From Candidatus Kaiserbacteria bacterium CG10_big_fil_rev_8_21_14_0_10_47_16 (GTDB lineage Bacteria > Patescibacteriota > Minisyncoccia > Phycocordibacterales > UBA918), in assembly GCA_002773395.1 (NCBI GenBank), contig PFBI01000004.1, forward strand, positions 12,615-76,614: a stretch of 64,000 bases of DNA, in the 5' to 3' direction. Positions 6,297-21,832 of this stretch are shown in pieces. Each line of letters begins with the position of its first letter. The stretch's first letter is position 1. The notes beneath the pieces are model-generated. The model saw only the letters and a list, made by a program, of their open reading frames with translations. It was not told the DNA's origin and ran no database searches. A program made the position numbers and the translations under genes.

Positions 6297-7283
6297 ATGA
6301 TGCCACAACACATTAATCCAAATATATTTAACGACACCGTTGAGCGAGTGCCAAACCGTAATGGTTTTGGTGAAGGGCTGAAAGCTGCAGGAGAGGTCGA
6401 GAAGAACGTTGTCGCACTCTGCTCCGACCTTACTGAGTCAACAAAGGTTTCAGATTTTGCGACTGCATTTCCTGAACGTTATTTTGAAATGGGTATTTGT
6501 GAACAATCGATGGCGTCAGTTGCATCGGGGATGGCTGCGATGGGGAAGATTCCATTCATTGCCTCGTACGCGATGTTTTCACCAGGAAGAAACTGGGAAC
6601 AGATTCGTACTACTATTGCCTACAACGGTGCGAATGTAAAAATAATCGGAGCGCACGCGGGTGTTTCTGTTGGTCCTGACGGTGCAACGCATCAAGCAAT
6701 TGAAGATATTGCACTGATGCGAACGATTCCTCGAATGGTTGTCATAGCTCCGTGCGATAGTAATGAAGCAAAGAAAGCGACGATGGCTGCCGCCACGTAT
6801 GATGGTCCGGTGTACATCCGTCTTGCACGTGAGAAGACACCTGTCGTCACGACGTCTGGGTCGCCGTTTACCATCGGTAAAGCAGAAATATATTTAGAGC
6901 GAAACAAAGACCATGCAAAGAAGATAGGTATTATTGCGAGCGGTACTATCCTGCACGGCGCTATGACCGCTGCACACGCATTAAACGAACAGGGAATTGG
7001 CGTCTCGGTTATGAATCTTGCGACTATTAAACCGCTTGATACAGAAGCAATCCTTGCGTTTGCAAAGGATCACGATGCGCTCGTAACTGTCGAAGAACAC
7101 CAAGTTGCAGGAGGTATGGGAAGTGCGGTCGCGGAGTATCTTTCGGAAGTATACCCAACGCGAGTCGTGCGACTCGGAGTACACGATCGGTTTGGTCAAT
7201 CGGGGACACCGGAAGAGCTCGTTGCTTACTATGGGATGGATGAAAAGGAGATTACCAAAACGGTACACGCTCTTGTGGATTGA
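6297..7283 (+). CDS. Transketolase, C-terminal (pyrimidine-binding) subunit of a split enzyme
   Basis: …FPERYFEMGICEQSMASVASGMA… plus a transketolase C-terminal domain. Confidence 0.88.
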   Translation: MMPQHINPNIFNDTVERVPNRNGFGEGLKAAGEVEKNVVALCSDLTESTKVSDFATAFPERYFEMGICEQSMASVASGMAAMGKIPFIASYAMFSPGRNWEQIRTTIAYNGANVKIIGAHAGVSVGPDGATHQAIEDIALMRTIPRMVVIAPCDSNEAKKATMAAATYDGPVYIRLAREKTPVVTTSGSPFTIGKAEIYLERNKDHAKKIGIIASGTILHGAMTAAHALNEQGIGVSVMNLATIKPLDTEAILAFAKDHDALVTVEEHQVAGGMGSAVAEYLSEVYPTRVVRLGVHDRFGQSGTPEELVAYYGMDEKEITKTVHALVD

Positions 7284-7327
7284 TGTTTTGCATTACGAAG
7301 CATATGTGTAATGCTACATCTATACGT

Positions 7328-7855
7328 ATGTATACTATTTTAAAAGAAAGAAAACAGACAGGATTTACACTCATTGAACTTCTTGTGGTTATTGCCATTA
7401 TTGGGATCTTGGCATCGATTGCGCTTGCATCACTTAATACAGCGCGAGAAAAAGCACAGAACACAAACTATTTAAGCCAAATCGATGCCTACCAGAAGGT
7501 GTTTGAGCTGTATTATTCAGACAATGGATTTTACCCAAAGAGTGGCGTGAGTGCGACTGGTGCAGAATATTGTCTCGGTGAGGGGTATCCGAATGGTACG
7601 TGTTGGCATAATACCGGCACCGGACGGTCTGAAAATTCAACCTTTAACACAGCCTTGAAACAATACATTTCAGCGCTCCCTATTCCTGCCGTTATAAATC
7701 CCTCAGCTTCTCTACAAGGAGCAATCTATAAACACCTCAACTCCGGCGGCGGATATGATGTCCAGTATTTCCTTGCTGGGAATAATCAAAACTGTGGGAA
7801 GGGTACCTTCATTTCAAATATTTCAGGGAACACGCGGTGTCAGATTATAAAGTAG
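7328..7855 (+). CDS. Type IV prepilin-like protein (second copy). Start uncertain; the ORF is open from 7280
   Basis: …KQTG|FTLIELLVVIAIIGILASIALASL, a class III signal peptide. Confidence 0.65.
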   Translation: MYTILKERKQTGFTLIELLVVIAIIGILASIALASLNTAREKAQNTNYLSQIDAYQKVFELYYSDNGFYPKSGVSATGAEYCLGEGYPNGTCWHNTGTGRSENSTFNTALKQYISALPIPAVINPSASLQGAIYKHLNSGGGYDVQYFLAGNNQNCGKGTFISNISGNTRCQIIK

Positions 7856-7880
7856 GATACTTGATACTCGTGCACAGTAA

Positions 7881-7911
7881 AATCTAACGGCGCGTGCCGT
7901 TAGATTTTTTT
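7881..7911. terminator. Bidirectional rho-independent terminator between the pilin gene and the convergent kinase gene
   Basis: Hairpin aatctaacggc/gccgttagatt followed by TTTTTTT. Overlaps the last codons (…PKKI) of the minus-strand kinase. Confidence 0.6.
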
Positions 7912-8901
7912 AGGCACGTATGTCTTCGGAGCCTTCGCAAGAAAGTCCGTCAGCTCTTCTATAGTGAGTAGTCCGGCCTGCGCCCCGATTTTTTGTACGA
8001 CAGACATTGAGTTTATCGGTCCCCACGCAAGCGCAGTTTTCACATCGTTTCCGAGCGCGAGTGCTGCGGTGAAGGTTGAGGAAAAGGAGTCTCCAGCGCC
8101 GGTACGATCAACCGGTGGCGCAGGATCGGGGTACATTGGCATGAACCACACGGTCTCTCCATCAAGCGCGAATGCACCATTTGGTCCATCGGTAATGACG
8201 GGAATCTTTGGTCCGAGCGCACGAATACTGCGGAGGAGTGATGGAATGTCAGTTTCATCAGAACCGAGAATCTGTTGCGCCTCTTCTTTATTACAAAAAA
8301 AGATTTCAGTGACCGCATAGAGATCTTTAAGCGCTTCGTATCCAAGGCGGATTTGGAATGTGCCCGGTTGGAAGACGAGCTTCGTTTCTTTGTTGGCAGC
8401 AACATAGGTTGCGATGTCATGATGAAATTGCACACCGTTCTCGCCAATAGATGAGAAATAAATATATCGCGGCGGATTTTCAAAATCAGGAAGAATGTAC
8501 GGATACTCCTCGTGTTTAATGAGGATAGTACGCTCTGCACCGTACCTTAGTACGTAGTGATAGTTAGTGAGCTTTTGCTCGTGTATCTTTACGAAGTCAG
8601 TATCGACACCTTCAGTGCGGAGCGCGTCGAGACAGTCCTTGCCGTTGCGATCATGGCCGAGATTGGTTGCGAGTGCACTCTTAAGTCCGAGACGCTTTGC
8701 GGCAACGGCGGCGTTTGGAGCATTCCCTACAGCATTTACCACCGTGACGTCTTCGTACGGAAGCTTTTCACCAAAGTTCATCGAAAGTTGGCAAGGTTTA
8801 CCGTCGATGTCGCATACGACGGTCGCATCTTTCTGTGAAAGTTGGATAAACGCGTCAATGGTAATATCTCCAATCGAAATAAAGTCGTATTCATGTGTCA
8901 T
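7900..8901 (-). CDS. PfkB-family carbohydrate kinase (ribokinase-like)
   Basis: C-terminal GAGDSFSSTFTAAL motif. ATG at 8901; the tracked ORF extends to an alternative GTG at 8919. Confidence 0.8.
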   Translation of the reverse strand: MTHEYDFISIGDITIDAFIQLSQKDATVVCDIDGKPCQLSMNFGEKLPYEDVTVVNAVGNAPNAAVAAKRLGLKSALATNLGHDRNGKDCLDALRTEGVDTDFVKIHEQKLTNYHYVLRYGAERTILIKHEEYPYILPDFENPPRYIYFSSIGENGVQFHHDIATYVAANKETKLVFQPGTFQIRLGYEALKDLYAVTEIFFCNKEEAQQILGSDETDIPSLLRSIRALGPKIPVITDGPNGAFALDGETVWFMPMYPDPAPPVDRTGAGDSFSSTFTAALALGNDVKTALAWGPINSMSVVQKIGAQAGLLTIEELTDFLAKAPKTYVPKKI

Positions 8902-8970
8902 ATAGGCAAAGTATACCACTGCCGCGGCGTGGTATTATTTGGGTATTAACACGATAACCACGATGAGAAC

Positions 8971-18906: not shown

Positions 18907-19632
18907 ATGGACACACAGCACGGACACAAACATCCACTGTCGCAAATGATTGCAGAGATCAATAGTATTTTTGCCGAAATTGGATTTGTGTTTGCTGAAG
19001 GTCCAGAAGCCGAGACTGAATATTACAACTTTGACCAATTGAATGTCCCAAAGGATCACCCGTCACGAGACATGCAGGATACCTTCTGGTTTCGGAAAGA
19101 AGACGTGTCTGAGCCAACGGTACTCCGAACGCATACGTCACCCGTACAGGCTCGGTATATGGAGGCCAATGAGCCGCCAATTCGCGTTATTGTGCCTGGG
19201 AAGGTGTTTCGTAACGAAGCTACCGATGCGACGCATGAGGCGCAGTTTTACCAGCTTGAGGGGCTGTATGTCGACAAAGGCGTCAACATGGGGCACCTCA
19301 AAGGGACACTTGAGTATTTCTTCTCCAAATTCCTCGGTGGGGAGACAGAAGTACGGTTTCGTCCGAGTTTCTTTCCATTCGTGGAGCCGGGTGTAGAAGT
19401 GGATATGAAGGTCTCTTCTTCGAGTGGGAGCAAGCTTGCTGGCCGCTGGGTGGAAATTATGGGAGCAGGTATGGTGCACCCGAGTGTACTGAAGAATGCA
19501 GGAATTGATCCTGAAGTATATTCAGGGTTCGCATTCGGAATGGGAATTGATCGACTTGGCTTTATGAAATATGACCTCGATGATGTACGTAATCTCTACT
19601 CAGGTGACTTGCGTGTAATCAATCAATTTTAG
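18907..19632 (+). CDS. pheS: Phenylalanine--tRNA ligase alpha subunit (short form)
   Basis: …HPSRDMQDTFWF… class II motifs. 241 aa. Confidence 0.9.
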   Translation: MDTQHGHKHPLSQMIAEINSIFAEIGFVFAEGPEAETEYYNFDQLNVPKDHPSRDMQDTFWFRKEDVSEPTVLRTHTSPVQARYMEANEPPIRVIVPGKVFRNEATDATHEAQFYQLEGLYVDKGVNMGHLKGTLEYFFSKFLGGETEVRFRPSFFPFVEPGVEVDMKVSSSSGSKLAGRWVEIMGAGMVHPSVLKNAGIDPEVYSGFAFGMGIDRLGFMKYDLDDVRNLYSGDLRVINQF

Positions 19633-19911
19633 CCCGTTAGAGATAACACATGTCATTTTATGTCTACGTACTCAAAAGCAAACAAGATAATCGATTTTAT
19701 ACTGGCTGTACTAATAACCTACGAAAACGTTTTAATCAGCACAACAAAGGGCAGGTTACTGCAACAAAAAAGAGATTGCCAGTTGAACTTATTTATTATG
19801 AAATGTGCCATAATCAAGAGGATGCATACGCTCGTGAAGAGTATTTAAAAACAGGTATGGGTAAGCGATATATTAAAAACAGATTAAAAGGTTTTCTATC
19901 TCTAACGGGCT
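19631..19911. repeat. Perfect 15-nt inverted repeat: agcccgttagagata at 19631-19645 and tatctctaacgggct at 19897-19911. It exactly brackets the GIY-YIG ORF
   Basis: Read directly. The left arm overlaps the pheS stop codon; the right arm encodes the C-terminus of the GIY-YIG protein. Confidence 0.8.
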
Positions 19912-19913
19912 GA
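19650..19913 (+). CDS. GIY-YIG nuclease superfamily protein (small stand-alone YhbQ/UPF0213-like)
   Basis: FYVYVLKS…DNRFYTGCTNNLRKRFNQHN is a GIY-YIG core. AT-rich compared with its flanks. Confidence 0.8.
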   Translation: MSFYVYVLKSKQDNRFYTGCTNNLRKRFNQHNKGQVTATKKRLPVELIYYEMCHNQEDAYAREEYLKTGMGKRYIKNRLKGFLSLTG

Positions 19914-19915
19914 AT

Positions 19916-21832
19916 ATGAAGGTAGTTTACGATTGGTTAGAAGAATATCTCGGAGAGAATGCACCTAGTTCTGAAAAGGTTGCGGATCTTTTGACATTTC
20001 ATGCATTTGAAATTGAAGGAACTGAAGTGAAAGGAGATCATACTGTTATCGATGTGGACGTACTTCCAAACCGCGCAGCGGATTGTCTCTCACACCGAGG
20101 TATTGCTCGGGAGATAGCATCAATTACAGGGGTGCCACTTGCCCACGATCCGCTCACGGTTCGTCCAGAGCTTCCTACTACAGATAAATTGGTAGCGACA
20201 ATCACAAATCCTGAACATTGTTCGCGGCTCACACTCGCCCTTATGGAAGGGGTCACTATTGGCGATTCACCGGAGTGGCTCAAGAGTCGACTGCAGGCAC
20301 TTGGTCAACGATCAATCAACAATGTTGTTGATGCCACCAACTACGTGATGCTCTCGCTTGGTCAGCCGCTTCATGCGTATGATGCAGCGAAGTGGCAAGA
20401 AAAAGACGGTACATATCATGTTGGTGTTCGTGCTGCCGCAGCCGGCGAGACGATCACGGTGCTTACAGGAGAAACATATGAGCTGACACCGCGGGCACAG
20501 CTTATTGTAGATACAACGAATGATGCGCCAGCAAGTATTGCGGGAATTAAAGGAGGAACCTATGCAGAGATTGGTAAAGAGACGACGACCATTATTCTTG
20601 AAGCTGCACATTTTAATCCGTCTGTGACGCGTGTCGCATCGCAGTTTTTAAAACTACAGACAGATGCATCAAAGCGATTTGAAAATGATCTCTCGCCTGA
20701 GCTTACCCCGTACGCACTTGATGCTGTCGTGAAACTTATTACAGATATCGCAGGAGGAACACTTGTTGGAATTACCGATACATACCCGATGGCGCGGTCA
20801 CAATCGCGCGTTGCAGTGACTGAAGCGAAGACGAACGCGCTTCTCGGACTCTCACTTACGCGAGAGGAGATGAAAGATATTTTGGTTCGTATTGGCGCGA
20901 CGGTTGAGGAAACTAAAGAGGGCTTTGTAGCAGTTGGCCCATGGGAACGAAACGATTTGGATATCGAAGAAGATTTTATTGAAGAGATTGGACGCATTTA
21001 TGGGTATGAGCACGTAGCACCTATTGTGCCGGAACAGATATTACTAAAAGAAATTAATGCTCGTCATTACTATAGCGAACGTGTCCGTGAGGTACTTATT
21101 GGTCTTGGATTCTTTGAAGTCATTACCTCATCATTTCGAAAGAAAGATGAAATCAGATTACAGAACGCACTTGCGAGTGATAAAGAATACCTTCGCTCAT
21201 CATTGAAAAAGAATATTATCGAGGTACTCGATAAAAATATTCCACTCGTCGACGTACTTGGTGTGCGAGACATTCGTGTATTTGAAATTGGTACGGTGTT
21301 CAGTAAAGGAGATGGGGGAGTGACAGAGCGGTTCTCACTTGCGTTTGGCGCTCGTACTCGACAAGATGGTTATAATCCAAAGGACGATGCTGTCCTCACG
21401 GAAGCAATGAGTGTGCTTGAGAAAGACCTTGGAGTATCGCTTGGTACACAGATTGAGAAAGGTGTCGTAGAAATCGCCTTTACCGAGCTCATAACACAGC
21501 TACCACAACCGACTGTATACGAACCACAACCTGTGGGAGCAGAGATACAGTACAAAGCATTTTCTCAATACCCGCACATCGCGCGTGATATTGCGCTCTG
21601 GGTATCTGAGGGAACAACCGCTGCAGATGTGATTGCGGTCTTACAAAAAGAAGCAGGAGATCTCTGTGTACGGATTACACTCTTCGATGAATTTACCAAA
21701 GATGGACGAACGTCATTTGCATTCCGCTTGGTGTTCCAGTCATATGAAAAAACGCTCGCAAGCGAAGAGGTAGATACGATTATGGAAAAAATATACGCTG
21801 CAGTAAAGGGAAACGATTGGGAGGTGCGATAA
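19916..21832 (+). CDS. pheT: Phenylalanine--tRNA ligase beta subunit (short form, 638 aa)
   Basis: N-terminus MKVVYDWLEEYL…, B3/4 and B5 domains, and a C-terminal anticodon-binding-like region. Confidence 0.88.
   Translation: MKVVYDWLEEYLGENAPSSEKVADLLTFHAFEIEGTEVKGDHTVIDVDVLPNRAADCLSHRGIAREIASITGVPLAHDPLTVRPELPTTDKLVATITNPEHCSRLTLALMEGVTIGDSPEWLKSRLQALGQRSINNVVDATNYVMLSLGQPLHAYDAAKWQEKDGTYHVGVRAAAAGETITVLTGETYELTPRAQLIVDTTNDAPASIAGIKGGTYAEIGKETTTIILEAAHFNPSVTRVASQFLKLQTDASKRFENDLSPELTPYALDAVVKLITDIAGGTLVGITDTYPMARSQSRVAVTEAKTNALLGLSLTREEMKDILVRIGATVEETKEGFVAVGPWERNDLDIEEDFIEEIGRIYGYEHVAPIVPEQILLKEINARHYYSERVREVLIGLGFFEVITSSFRKKDEIRLQNALASDKEYLRSSLKKNIIEVLDKNIPLVDVLGVRDIRVFEIGTVFSKGDGGVTERFSLAFGARTRQDGYNPKDDAVLTEAMSVLEKDLGVSLGTQIEKGVVEIAFTELITQLPQPTVYEPQPVGAEIQYKAFSQYPHIARDIALWVSEGTTAADVIAVLQKEAGDLCVRITLFDEFTKDGRTSFAFRLVFQSYEKTLASEEVDTIMEKIYAAVKGNDWEVR

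Follow-up and report, generated by a model that had tools for sequence, protein, structure and literature searches.

Between pheS and pheT of a Candidatus Kaiserbacteria bacterium lies a small gene for a GIY-YIG nuclease that is bracketed by an inverted repeat. We analysed this gene within a 64-kb stretch of contig PFBI01000004.1 (positions 12,615 to 76,614), called the window below, whose own coordinates are used throughout. All features described at the locus are on the plus strand. The pheS gene (18907–19632), which encodes a catalytic core of 241 aa (Pfam PF01409 tRNA-synt_2d, E = 8e-96), ends with a TAG at 19630–19632. The nuclease open reading frame (ORF) spans 19650–19913, encodes a single-domain protein of 87 aa (PF01541, E = 2e-17) and ends with a TGA at 19911–19913, and pheT (638 aa, Pfam B3_4/B5/FDX-ACB) spans 19916–21832. 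An earlier note, made from the sequence alone, had described an 87-aa GIY-YIG ORF that fills the gap between the two genes, starting 17 nt after the pheS stop and ending 2 nt before the pheT ATG; all of these coordinates hold, and Pfam confirms the three genes.

The nuclease ORF is enclosed by a perfect 15-nt inverted repeat, as the note had also reported. The left copy (AGCCCGTTAGAGATA) occupies 19631–19645, and its exact complement at 19897–19911 encodes the last residues of the nuclease; neither has another exact copy in the 64-kb window. The chance expectation for a perfect inverted 15-mer pair within about 300 nt is roughly 4e-5 (about 4.5e4 placements × 4^-15). We refer to the unit bounded by this repeat (19631–19911) as the cassette, with a boundary that is uncertain by about 2 nt. 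An insert GCCC...GGGC at 19632–19910, between TA and TA/TG, fits the comparison of an occupied relative (L001; loci carry the prefix L) with its closest empty relative (L134).

The two repeat copies belong to longer arms that can pair as an outer helix, with its 5′ strand at 19628–19645, around the pheS TAG, and its 3′ strand at 19897–19914, around the nuclease TGA. Three further pairs, one of them U·G, carry the helix down to 19628, and a separate 3-bp extension joins 19623–19625 to 19917–19919, where it covers the UG of the pheT AUG. At 87% complementarity the repeat therefore stretches to 23 nt (19623–19645 with 19897–19919) and reaches the pheT ATG. The left arm holds a core found throughout the family, CCCGTTAGAGAT, plus an AGAGA stretch 9–13 nt before the nuclease ATG, and the right arm is made of the last five sense codons of the nuclease (LSLTG). 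A second inverted repeat, overlooked by the earlier note, forms an inner helix within the ORF: its 5′ strand (19723–19737, codons R-K-R-F-N) and 3′ strand (19882–19896, codons R-L-K-G-F) are each 15 nt long and 93% complementary, and the 3′ strand adjoins the right arm directly. As a result, an unbroken stretch of roughly 30 nt at the end of the cassette is paired with two upstream segments that stand about 77 nt from each other.

Base pairing of the arms and of the inner segments is almost certainly selected. In 73 distinct loci with arms in a fixed register, the 14 pairs of the outer helix are 98.6% paired, with double-sided change in 8 of the 14 and 82 compensatory cells; none of 500 shuffles attains any of these measures, and slid controls are 29–43% paired. 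Compensatory variants include GAGAT/ATCTC, GAGAC/GTCTC, GAGAA/TTCTC and GAGCT/AGCTC, and the outermost pair can be T-A, C-G or G-C. The inner helix, which links codons around L-R-K-R-F with codons around L-K-R-F-L, is 94.5% paired and shows double-sided change in 9 of 12 pairs, with 138 compensatory cells that fall mostly at synonymous positions (0/500 shuffles attain the observed values). RNAalifold recovers both helices unaided from 71 full-length elements. Folding of the window sequence, which the note had proposed as a check, places both helices in the minimum free energy and centroid structures, whether folded as RNA (−72.4 kcal/mol, z = −3.7) or as DNA. Because both helices are kept by compensatory change, it is base pairing within one strand that is under selection.

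Pairing does not account for all of this conservation. The third positions of codons 84–86 are identical at levels of 1.00, 0.99 and 1.00 in 71 loci, whereas codons outside the three helix regions average 0.55. Since the arm core is invariant even at synonymous sites, it is constrained in sequence beyond the needs of pairing, which suggests sequence-specific recognition by a protein.

The same ORF with the same arms recurs far beyond this genome. More than 1,000 protein clusters are 66–86% identical to the window ORF, nearly all of them 86–87 aa long. The genomic context of five relatives was inspected: four, one of them from Kaiserbacteria, lie between pheS and pheT at the same spacing, the fifth (Omnitrophota, 70% identical) lies between pgk and tpiA, and all five have the same arms. 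A scan of one genome per species finds at least 541 copies in species-representative genomes. The best 80 of these come from many Patescibacteria classes, Omnitrophota, Elusimicrobiota, Planctomycetota, Thermodesulfobacteriota, Clostridia and Bdellovibrionales, and several genomes have two or three copies. Approximately 80 distinct relatives from several phyla, with ORFs 62–86% identical, share the arms. In nearly all of 84 distinct loci, NCCCGTTAGAGAY stands shortly upstream of the start, with a spacing that varies from 0 to about 20 nt, and RTCTCTAACGGGN codes for the C-terminal LSLTG, and in almost all of them the arms are about 260 nt apart. The ORF and its inverted repeat thus form a single unit, which is very probably one representative of a widespread mini-cassette that moves horizontally.

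The note had remarked that the ORF is more AT-rich than both flanks. The compositional contrast itself is real, with a GC content of 0.34 for the nuclease ORF against 0.49 for pheS and 0.46 for pheT. However, the ORF lies 5–17 GC points under its flanks in all 11 lineages compared, so low GC is intrinsic and gives no sign of a recent arrival. We therefore rejected this line of evidence; the persistent low GC reflects a protein rich in Lys, Asn and Tyr.

Copies of the cassette occupy a characteristic position among host genes. A co-oriented downstream gene starts within −4 to +4 of the cassette stop in 59 of 83 distinct copies, its start overlapping the stop as ATGA in 34 cases and following 2 nt downstream in 13. 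A co-oriented upstream gene has its stop in or at the left arm in 49 of the 83; this stop is a TAG inside CCGTTAG in 13 and forms an ATGA overlap in 12. Both arrangements are present together in 41 copies. The neighbouring genes are mutually unrelated (86 Pfam families among 49 downstream genes) and belong to dozens of operons. The cassette slots between a stop and the next start and apparently leaves the host operon intact. The left ATGA of many copies shares the reading frame of the nuclease ORF and yields an MNPVRD N terminus; such copies appear to borrow the start signals of the host gene and to pass translation back through the ATGA overlap. We also observed that, in the pgk–tpiA copies of Omnitrophota (L018 and L029), excision of the cassette at the repeat ends would let the pgk reading frame continue, in phase and without a stop codon, to the tpiA ATG; an empty pgk–tpiA site corresponding to these loci was not found.

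Comparison of pheS–pheT junctions in related genomes, another of the checks suggested in the note, reveals that the site is mostly empty. A DNA-pattern scan for pheS 3′ ends encoding GDLRxxxQF-stop yielded 119 junctions, of which 115 are empty, 3 are occupied and 1 (L137) carries a remnant. Most empty junctions have no more than about 10 nt between the stop and the pheT ATG, and this distance is 1–3 nt for 39 of the 73 junctions whose pheT ORF is long. Two occupied loci have very close empty relatives: L001 and L134 are 97% identical in PheS and 92% in PheT, and L011 and L163 are 97% and 83% identical. The empty junction of L134 reads ..caattcTAA gt ATG.. and the occupied junction of L001 reads ..caatttTAG CCCG...CGGGC TAA at ATG.., from which it follows that the cassette brings a new pheS stop and that the position of the former stop has come to terminate the nuclease ORF. 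In the locus scored as a remnant, a solo left arm (CCCGTTAGAGAT) comes after the pheS TAG, then ttaat and the pheT ATG, and neither the ORF nor a right arm is present. It looks like what a deletion of the cassette left behind; L171, the closest relative of that locus, has a clean empty site. The pheS-end pattern gave no match in viral contigs.

Every occupied locus of the TAG type that was read has TTT TAG at the end of pheS, and the nearest empty sites mostly have TTC or TTT followed by TAA. The spacer before the pheT ATG is AT in nine of ten TAG-type pheS–pheT loci (the exception, L038, has AGT), whereas the spacers of the nearest empty sites vary. All TAG-type pheS–pheT nucleases form one clade. 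A Saccharibacteria copy in pheS–pheT with an ATGAA-type junction falls outside this clade, which marks it as an independent hit as judged from its position in the tree. Furthermore, the nuclease and host trees conflict in part: the host of L005 is nearest to L011 and L021 (PheS 79%, PheT 53%), whereas its nuclease is nearest to the window and L001 copies (83–84% versus 74%). No co-conversion tracts were seen in the occupied loci, where host-specific flanking sequence extends as far as the stop and start codons. That the pheS–pheT sub-lineage has been gained and lost among related Patescibacteria is shown by its patchy occurrence, the empty sites, the single remnant and the conflict between the cassette and host trees. 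The note had pictured a cassette that landed in an essential operon. A mobile element does sit there, but its arrival was no one-off event, as it belongs to a pheS–pheT-specific clade, and synteny throughout the lineage is contradicted by the empty sites.

Several copies carry marks of movement with the arms as end points. One genome (L091) carries a pair of copies that are two substitutions apart and encode an identical protein, and the identity between them begins at ATGA(R)TCCC and ends at GGGATGAAGC, that is, at the arms. The terminal repeats thus delimit a mobile unit, as in insertion sequence (IS) elements, and the arms are kept in more than 70 loci. In another genome (L033) cassettes stand in tandem, and their junction at 101–131 is a perfect palindrome of right arm and left arm. 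At L067 (2464–2494) a host ORF ends in ..IPLTG* contributed by a right arm that stands alone and borders the following cassette, again as a perfect local palindrome.

Approximately 14 elements lack the ORF and retain termini CCCGTTAGAA...TTCTAACGGG with arms 30–110 nt apart, close to full copies. One of them (L181; ATGAATCCCGTTAGAAATTAAG...TTAATTTCTAATGGGATGAAAG, with about 100 nt between the arm cores) sits exactly on a pheT start codon about 270–400 nt past the pheS stop, just downstream of a full pheS–pheT cassette, and TGAA is duplicated on both sides of it. These short palindromic elements were noticed at L027, L041, L043, L046, L059, L060, L068, L069, L081, L092, L096 and L115. Several of these mini-elements share internal ends GCCGC...TCTGC together with GC-rich inner hairpins; they co-occur with full cassettes in the same genomes and resemble miniature inverted-repeat transposable elements (MITEs) or the NTS repeats associated with Ssn, which is described below.

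Flanking duplications were tested in two ways. Among copies whose outermost pair is T-A (class A), with ends held fixed, identical flanking 4-mers (TGAA, TGAG, TGAT or TGGA) are present in 25 of 36, a number reached by 0 of 5,000 within-class shuffles. One uniform target-site duplication for all loci was rejected: with ends defined by maximal Watson–Crick extension, only a 2-nt repeat is enriched (32 of 82 versus 14 expected), and other lengths are inconsistent. The suggestion in the note of a mobile or selfish cassette with terminal repeats of its own is supported by its many contexts and phyla, the empty junctions, the duplicate and tandem copies, the mini-elements and the remnant.

The encoded protein is a compact member of the GIY-YIG superfamily. 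It scores 63.6 bits against PF01541, for which the curated cut-off is 22.6, and 24 family members share Y6, Y17, H31, E63 and N77 without exception and R27 almost without exception; we take the conserved positions to correspond to Y6, Y17, R27, E75 and N90 of I-TevI. An AlphaFold model (pLDDT 91) has a beta-beta-alpha-beta-alpha-alpha fold in which the catalytic domain and one C-terminal helix take up the whole 87 aa. This helix, KRYIKNRLKRFLSLTG, is particular to the subfamily of the window nuclease, and no specific NCBIfam family was matched. Foldseek matches include BH0048, SLX1, the N-terminal domain of UvrC and I-TevI. By sequence and fold together, the nearest solved structures are the UPF0213 proteins BH0048 (E = 3e-9) and EF2693, followed by SLX1, in agreement with the earlier assignment to the YhbQ/UPF0213 kind. 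A tblastn search of plasmid records gave only three distant UPF0213-like matches, of which Bacillus subtilis yazA alone is annotated.

The closest known system is Ssn. Ssn proteins are single-domain GIY-YIG enzymes of about 94 aa that bind the NTS/SRM hairpin repeats flanking their own genes, and they cut single-stranded DNA (ssDNA) beside these hairpins but neither double-stranded DNA nor RNA (PMC11893778). Their activity survives when the hairpin is split over two oligonucleotides, and Chenal et al. (2025) remark on the IS-like architecture of the system (PMC11893778). Membership in this family (cd10448) was defined by BLASTP E < 1e-10 with at least 75% coverage to Neisseria meningitidis SsnA, or by cd10448 as the top CDD hit (PMC11893778). 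As a proxy for SsnA we used an Ssn-type protein, P0164, validated by its NTS flanks: its gene has CGTCATTCCCGCGAAKGCGGGAATCCAK, which is the published NTS, on both sides. In this single proxy comparison, P0164 and the window protein are 42% identical over 64 aa (E = 6e-14), an alignment that covers 74% of the window protein and 66% of P0164 and leaves the C-terminal third unaligned. BLAST scores are practically equal for YazA (47 bits) and P0164 (48 bits), so that by sequence similarity the nuclease subfamily is a relative of both the UPF0213 and the Ssn groups.

The resemblance to Ssn extends beyond the protein. In both systems a single-domain GIY-YIG protein of about 90 aa is encoded by a gene that is bracketed by inverted-repeat sequence near its start and stop codons and can lie within operons, and hairpin copies that lack the ORF occur elsewhere in the same genomes. 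In contrast to Ssn, which has a full short hairpin on each side, the cassette has one hairpin split around the gene, with a right half that is coding, and a second inner helix within the ORF. Its arm (CCCGTTAGAGAT) misses the SRM pattern (HGTCWY..YYVSBRH..WNVSBRG..RNCYNB), its hosts are mainly Patescibacteria and other uncultured phyla, and it is inserted from stop to start. The P0164 gene itself (L219, 1469–1824) was seen to lie in an operon, where it and the atuA-ferredoxin gene upstream of it have 8 nt in common; an NTS hairpin ends 4 nt ahead of its ATG, and a second begins 2 nt past its stop, a geometry near that of the window cassette.

Transposable elements offer a further comparison. 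Like IS elements and MITEs, the cassette has terminal inverted repeats, an apparent short target duplication (in class A) and non-autonomous mini copies; like IS200/IS605 elements, it has ends that can fold in ssDNA; and, as in the fold-back inhibition of IS10, the terminal repeat of a read-through transcript could block translation of the element's own gene. Unlike IS elements, it encodes as its sole protein an 87-aa hydrolytic nuclease, has its right repeat inside the ORF and is restricted to gene boundaries. No transposase fold (DDE, HUH, serine or tyrosine recombinase) is present in the cassette, whose only ORF is the GIY-YIG nuclease. A group I intron with a GIY-YIG ORF was also considered and rejected: an Rfam scan of 19400–20150 at E ≤ 10 matches no known RNA family, and the ORF and arms occupy the whole insert.

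The cassette is thus a unit that is gained and lost, that keeps its ends and internal segments complementary and that is placed from stop to start. The explanation that we favour on balance is a mobile cassette with split-hairpin ends that are acted on by its own nuclease and that is transparent in the operon. When the sense strand is exposed as ssDNA, as in a lagging-strand template or during DNA uptake, the split hairpin would place the two ends of the element side by side. The folded ends could then form a sequence- and structure-specific site for the nuclease of the cassette, on the example of Ssn, and a cut at the base of the stem would cause the cassette to be copied or inserted at TGAN or stop/start junctions. 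We consider the part of this proposal in which folded sense-strand ssDNA is the substrate of the encoded nuclease to be evenly balanced between right and wrong. If correct, it would account for the invariant arm core, for mini-elements that keep their arms and for duplicate copies bounded by the arms.

A second part of the proposal concerns mRNA. No terminator-like site was seen in the region, and promoter-like sites are not in excess there; the cassette therefore presumably lives on operon read-through, and the same fold would form in the transcript. There, the pheS UAG inside the stem would come within a few nucleotides of the pheT AUG, and the ribosome-binding region of the nuclease (the AGAGA stretch upstream of its AUG) would be buried. 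A ribosome that reaches the end of pheS would unwind the stem and make both start sites accessible, so that pheS–pheT coupling would be preserved and nuclease output would stay low. We hold this arrangement to be plausible, at slightly short of an even chance. The alternative raised in the earlier note, a long-range mRNA stem, is compatible with the strong covariation and with arms that lie on stop and start codons; the mobile-cassette and mRNA-stem readings are probably both partly true.

Taken at its fullest, this proposal would define an undescribed class of autonomous DNA element, with an 87-aa GIY-YIG nuclease as its sole protein, a split ssDNA hairpin as the substrate of that nuclease, insertion at TGAN stop/start sites with a 4-nt duplication, expression as an extra translationally coupled cistron and mini-elements across phyla. 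We advance this wider claim tentatively and regard it as rather less probable than not.

A number of observations weigh against a mobile cassette whose ends are processed by its own nuclease. Recognition of the stem by the nuclease is argued by analogy with Ssn, and the C-terminal third of the window protein is unrelated to Ssn. A search of the whole 64-kb window for the SRM pattern gave 0 matches, whereas the positive control (L219) has one match on each side of its gene. On the features tested, the subfamily cannot be assigned to Ssn. GIY-YIG enzymes are hydrolytic, and we know of no transposon with a GIY-YIG enzyme as its only enzyme, which leaves the joining step without a candidate. Window-type copies show at most a TA/TG dinucleotide repeat, unlike the 4-nt repeat of class A, and the 64-kb window has a single cassette copy and no mini-elements. 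One of the two peptide patterns used to fetch relatives includes FLSL, so that the sample favours intact right arms, although synonymous positions stayed free in this pattern.

The strand and molecule that fold are likewise only modestly constrained by the alignments. G·U pairs outnumber A·C mismatches by about 30 to 13, or 16 to 11 without one lineage-linked column, an excess that is too weak to serve as a guide to the folding strand or to RNA versus DNA. Finally, nuclease identity within the pheS–pheT clade correlates with that of PheS (r = 0.78) and PheT (r = 0.74), and the nuclease is conserved like the PheS core (mean identity 72% versus 70%; PheT 47%). Such tracking of host divergence also fits a long vertical residence with a host-useful function.

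The same correlations speak for a domesticated host gene, in which a housekeeping or repair protein of the UPF0213/SLX1 type joined the pheST operon and the helices provide translational control internal to that operon. The strong purifying selection implied by a mean identity that equals that of the PheS core and is well over that of PheT agrees with this idea, as do the nearest solved relatives, which are UPF0213 proteins (the group of YhbQ and YazA) and SLX1. However, we know of no UPF0213 gene described as repeat-flanked or mobile, and the C-terminal helix KRYIKNRLKRFLSLTG sets the cassette subfamily apart from that group. The gene is missing from 115 of 119 related pheS ends, near-identical relatives included; the same cassette stands in many operons and phyla, in multiple and tandem copies and with mini-elements; and one locus has lost it and kept a solo arm. 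Domestication is consequently very unlikely. A functionless repeat that arose by chance or through misassembly would be in keeping with a 15-mer found at only two places in the window, but this is improbable to the point of being negligible: the chance expectation is about 4e-5, and the idea is already refuted by the compensatory changes with which the repeat is conserved at over 70 independent loci, drawn from separate assemblies and from different phyla.

Homing by a free-standing endonuclease is a more substantial competitor. In that case the enzyme would cut the double-stranded DNA of an empty pheS–pheT junction, its gene would be copied in by repair, and the helices would act in mRNA only, hiding the ribosome-binding site (RBS) of the nuclease, as hairpins do in T4 seg/mob genes, and bridging the pheS stop to the pheT start. 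Homing of the Seg type calls for occupied and empty versions of one site among relatives, and these exist (L001/L134 and L011/L163). Divergent hosts carry the insert at one and the same site, with junctions that are identical, the nuclease tree conflicts with the host tree, the arms lie exactly on stop and start codons and the cassette is co-oriented with its neighbours. There is also precedent in T4, where the free-standing mobE lies between nrdA and nrdB (PMC2988022) and RBS-sequestering hairpins are found for mobE, segB and I-TevI (PMC2988022, PMC2790892). Both the seg/mob genes and the cassette are selfish nuclease genes of variable presence that lie between conserved linked genes, depend on host read-through and have a candidate RBS-sequestering RNA structure (PMC2988022, PMC2790892).

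The architecture of the cassette fits homing less well. The added DNA-binding domain expected of a Seg-like enzyme is absent, as the catalytic domain and its C-terminal helix fill the protein. Seg and I-TevI enzymes read long sites through DNA-binding modules, and Seg carries its domain for one long site, whereas bare catalytic domains of near-identical sequence stand at dozens of unrelated sites in the case of the cassette. The T4 genes have no terminal inverted repeats, target duplication or mini derivatives. In the cassette family, by contrast, class-A copies have a 4-nt direct repeat, mini-elements retain their arms though they have no nuclease to regulate, and the arm core is invariant in sequence past the need for pairing. 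Occupied loci also lack co-conversion tracts, their flanks being host-like up to the stop and start codons. We therefore judge homing to be unlikely, at about one-half the standing that we give to a mobile cassette with split-hairpin ends processed by its own nuclease.

What is new relative to Ssn and to free-standing selfish nucleases is the split-hairpin architecture, the covariation within coding sequence and the operon-transparent insertion. Small ORFs annotated as 'GIY-YIG nuclease family protein' are scattered in uncultured bacteria and are usually ignored; our results suggest that one large subfamily of them is a self-contained mobile unit. Such ORFs should not be taken as host repair genes or as members of the pheST operon. 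The cassette is also a case of overlapping codes, with two covarying helices inside coding sequence, down to invariant synonymous sites. It can sit between translationally coupled essential genes, apparently without harm; it supplies a stop on one side and recreates a start context on the other. Finally, the nuclease/hairpin principle of Ssn would be extended to a different architecture, a split hairpin with a stem of 14 + 12 bp, that could yield programmable tools for cutting ssDNA.

Two minor features of the window were noted. PheS, at only 241 aa (Pfam profile positions 11–246), and PheT, at 638 aa, are short forms, and gene calls at every related locus give these short versions too. In addition, a perfect 13-bp hairpin (AAAATCTAACGGC gcgt GCCGTTAGATTTT) at 7878–7909 sits between convergent ORFs at 7280–7855 (plus strand) and 7900–8919 (minus strand) and resembles a bidirectional terminator. 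This hairpin has a 9-nt core (CCGTTAGAT/ATCTAACGG) in common with the cassette arms, in the order right arm then left arm, as at a tandem junction, and the core 7-mers are otherwise absent from the window. The likeness may be a coincidence, or this may be a related hairpin that stands alone.

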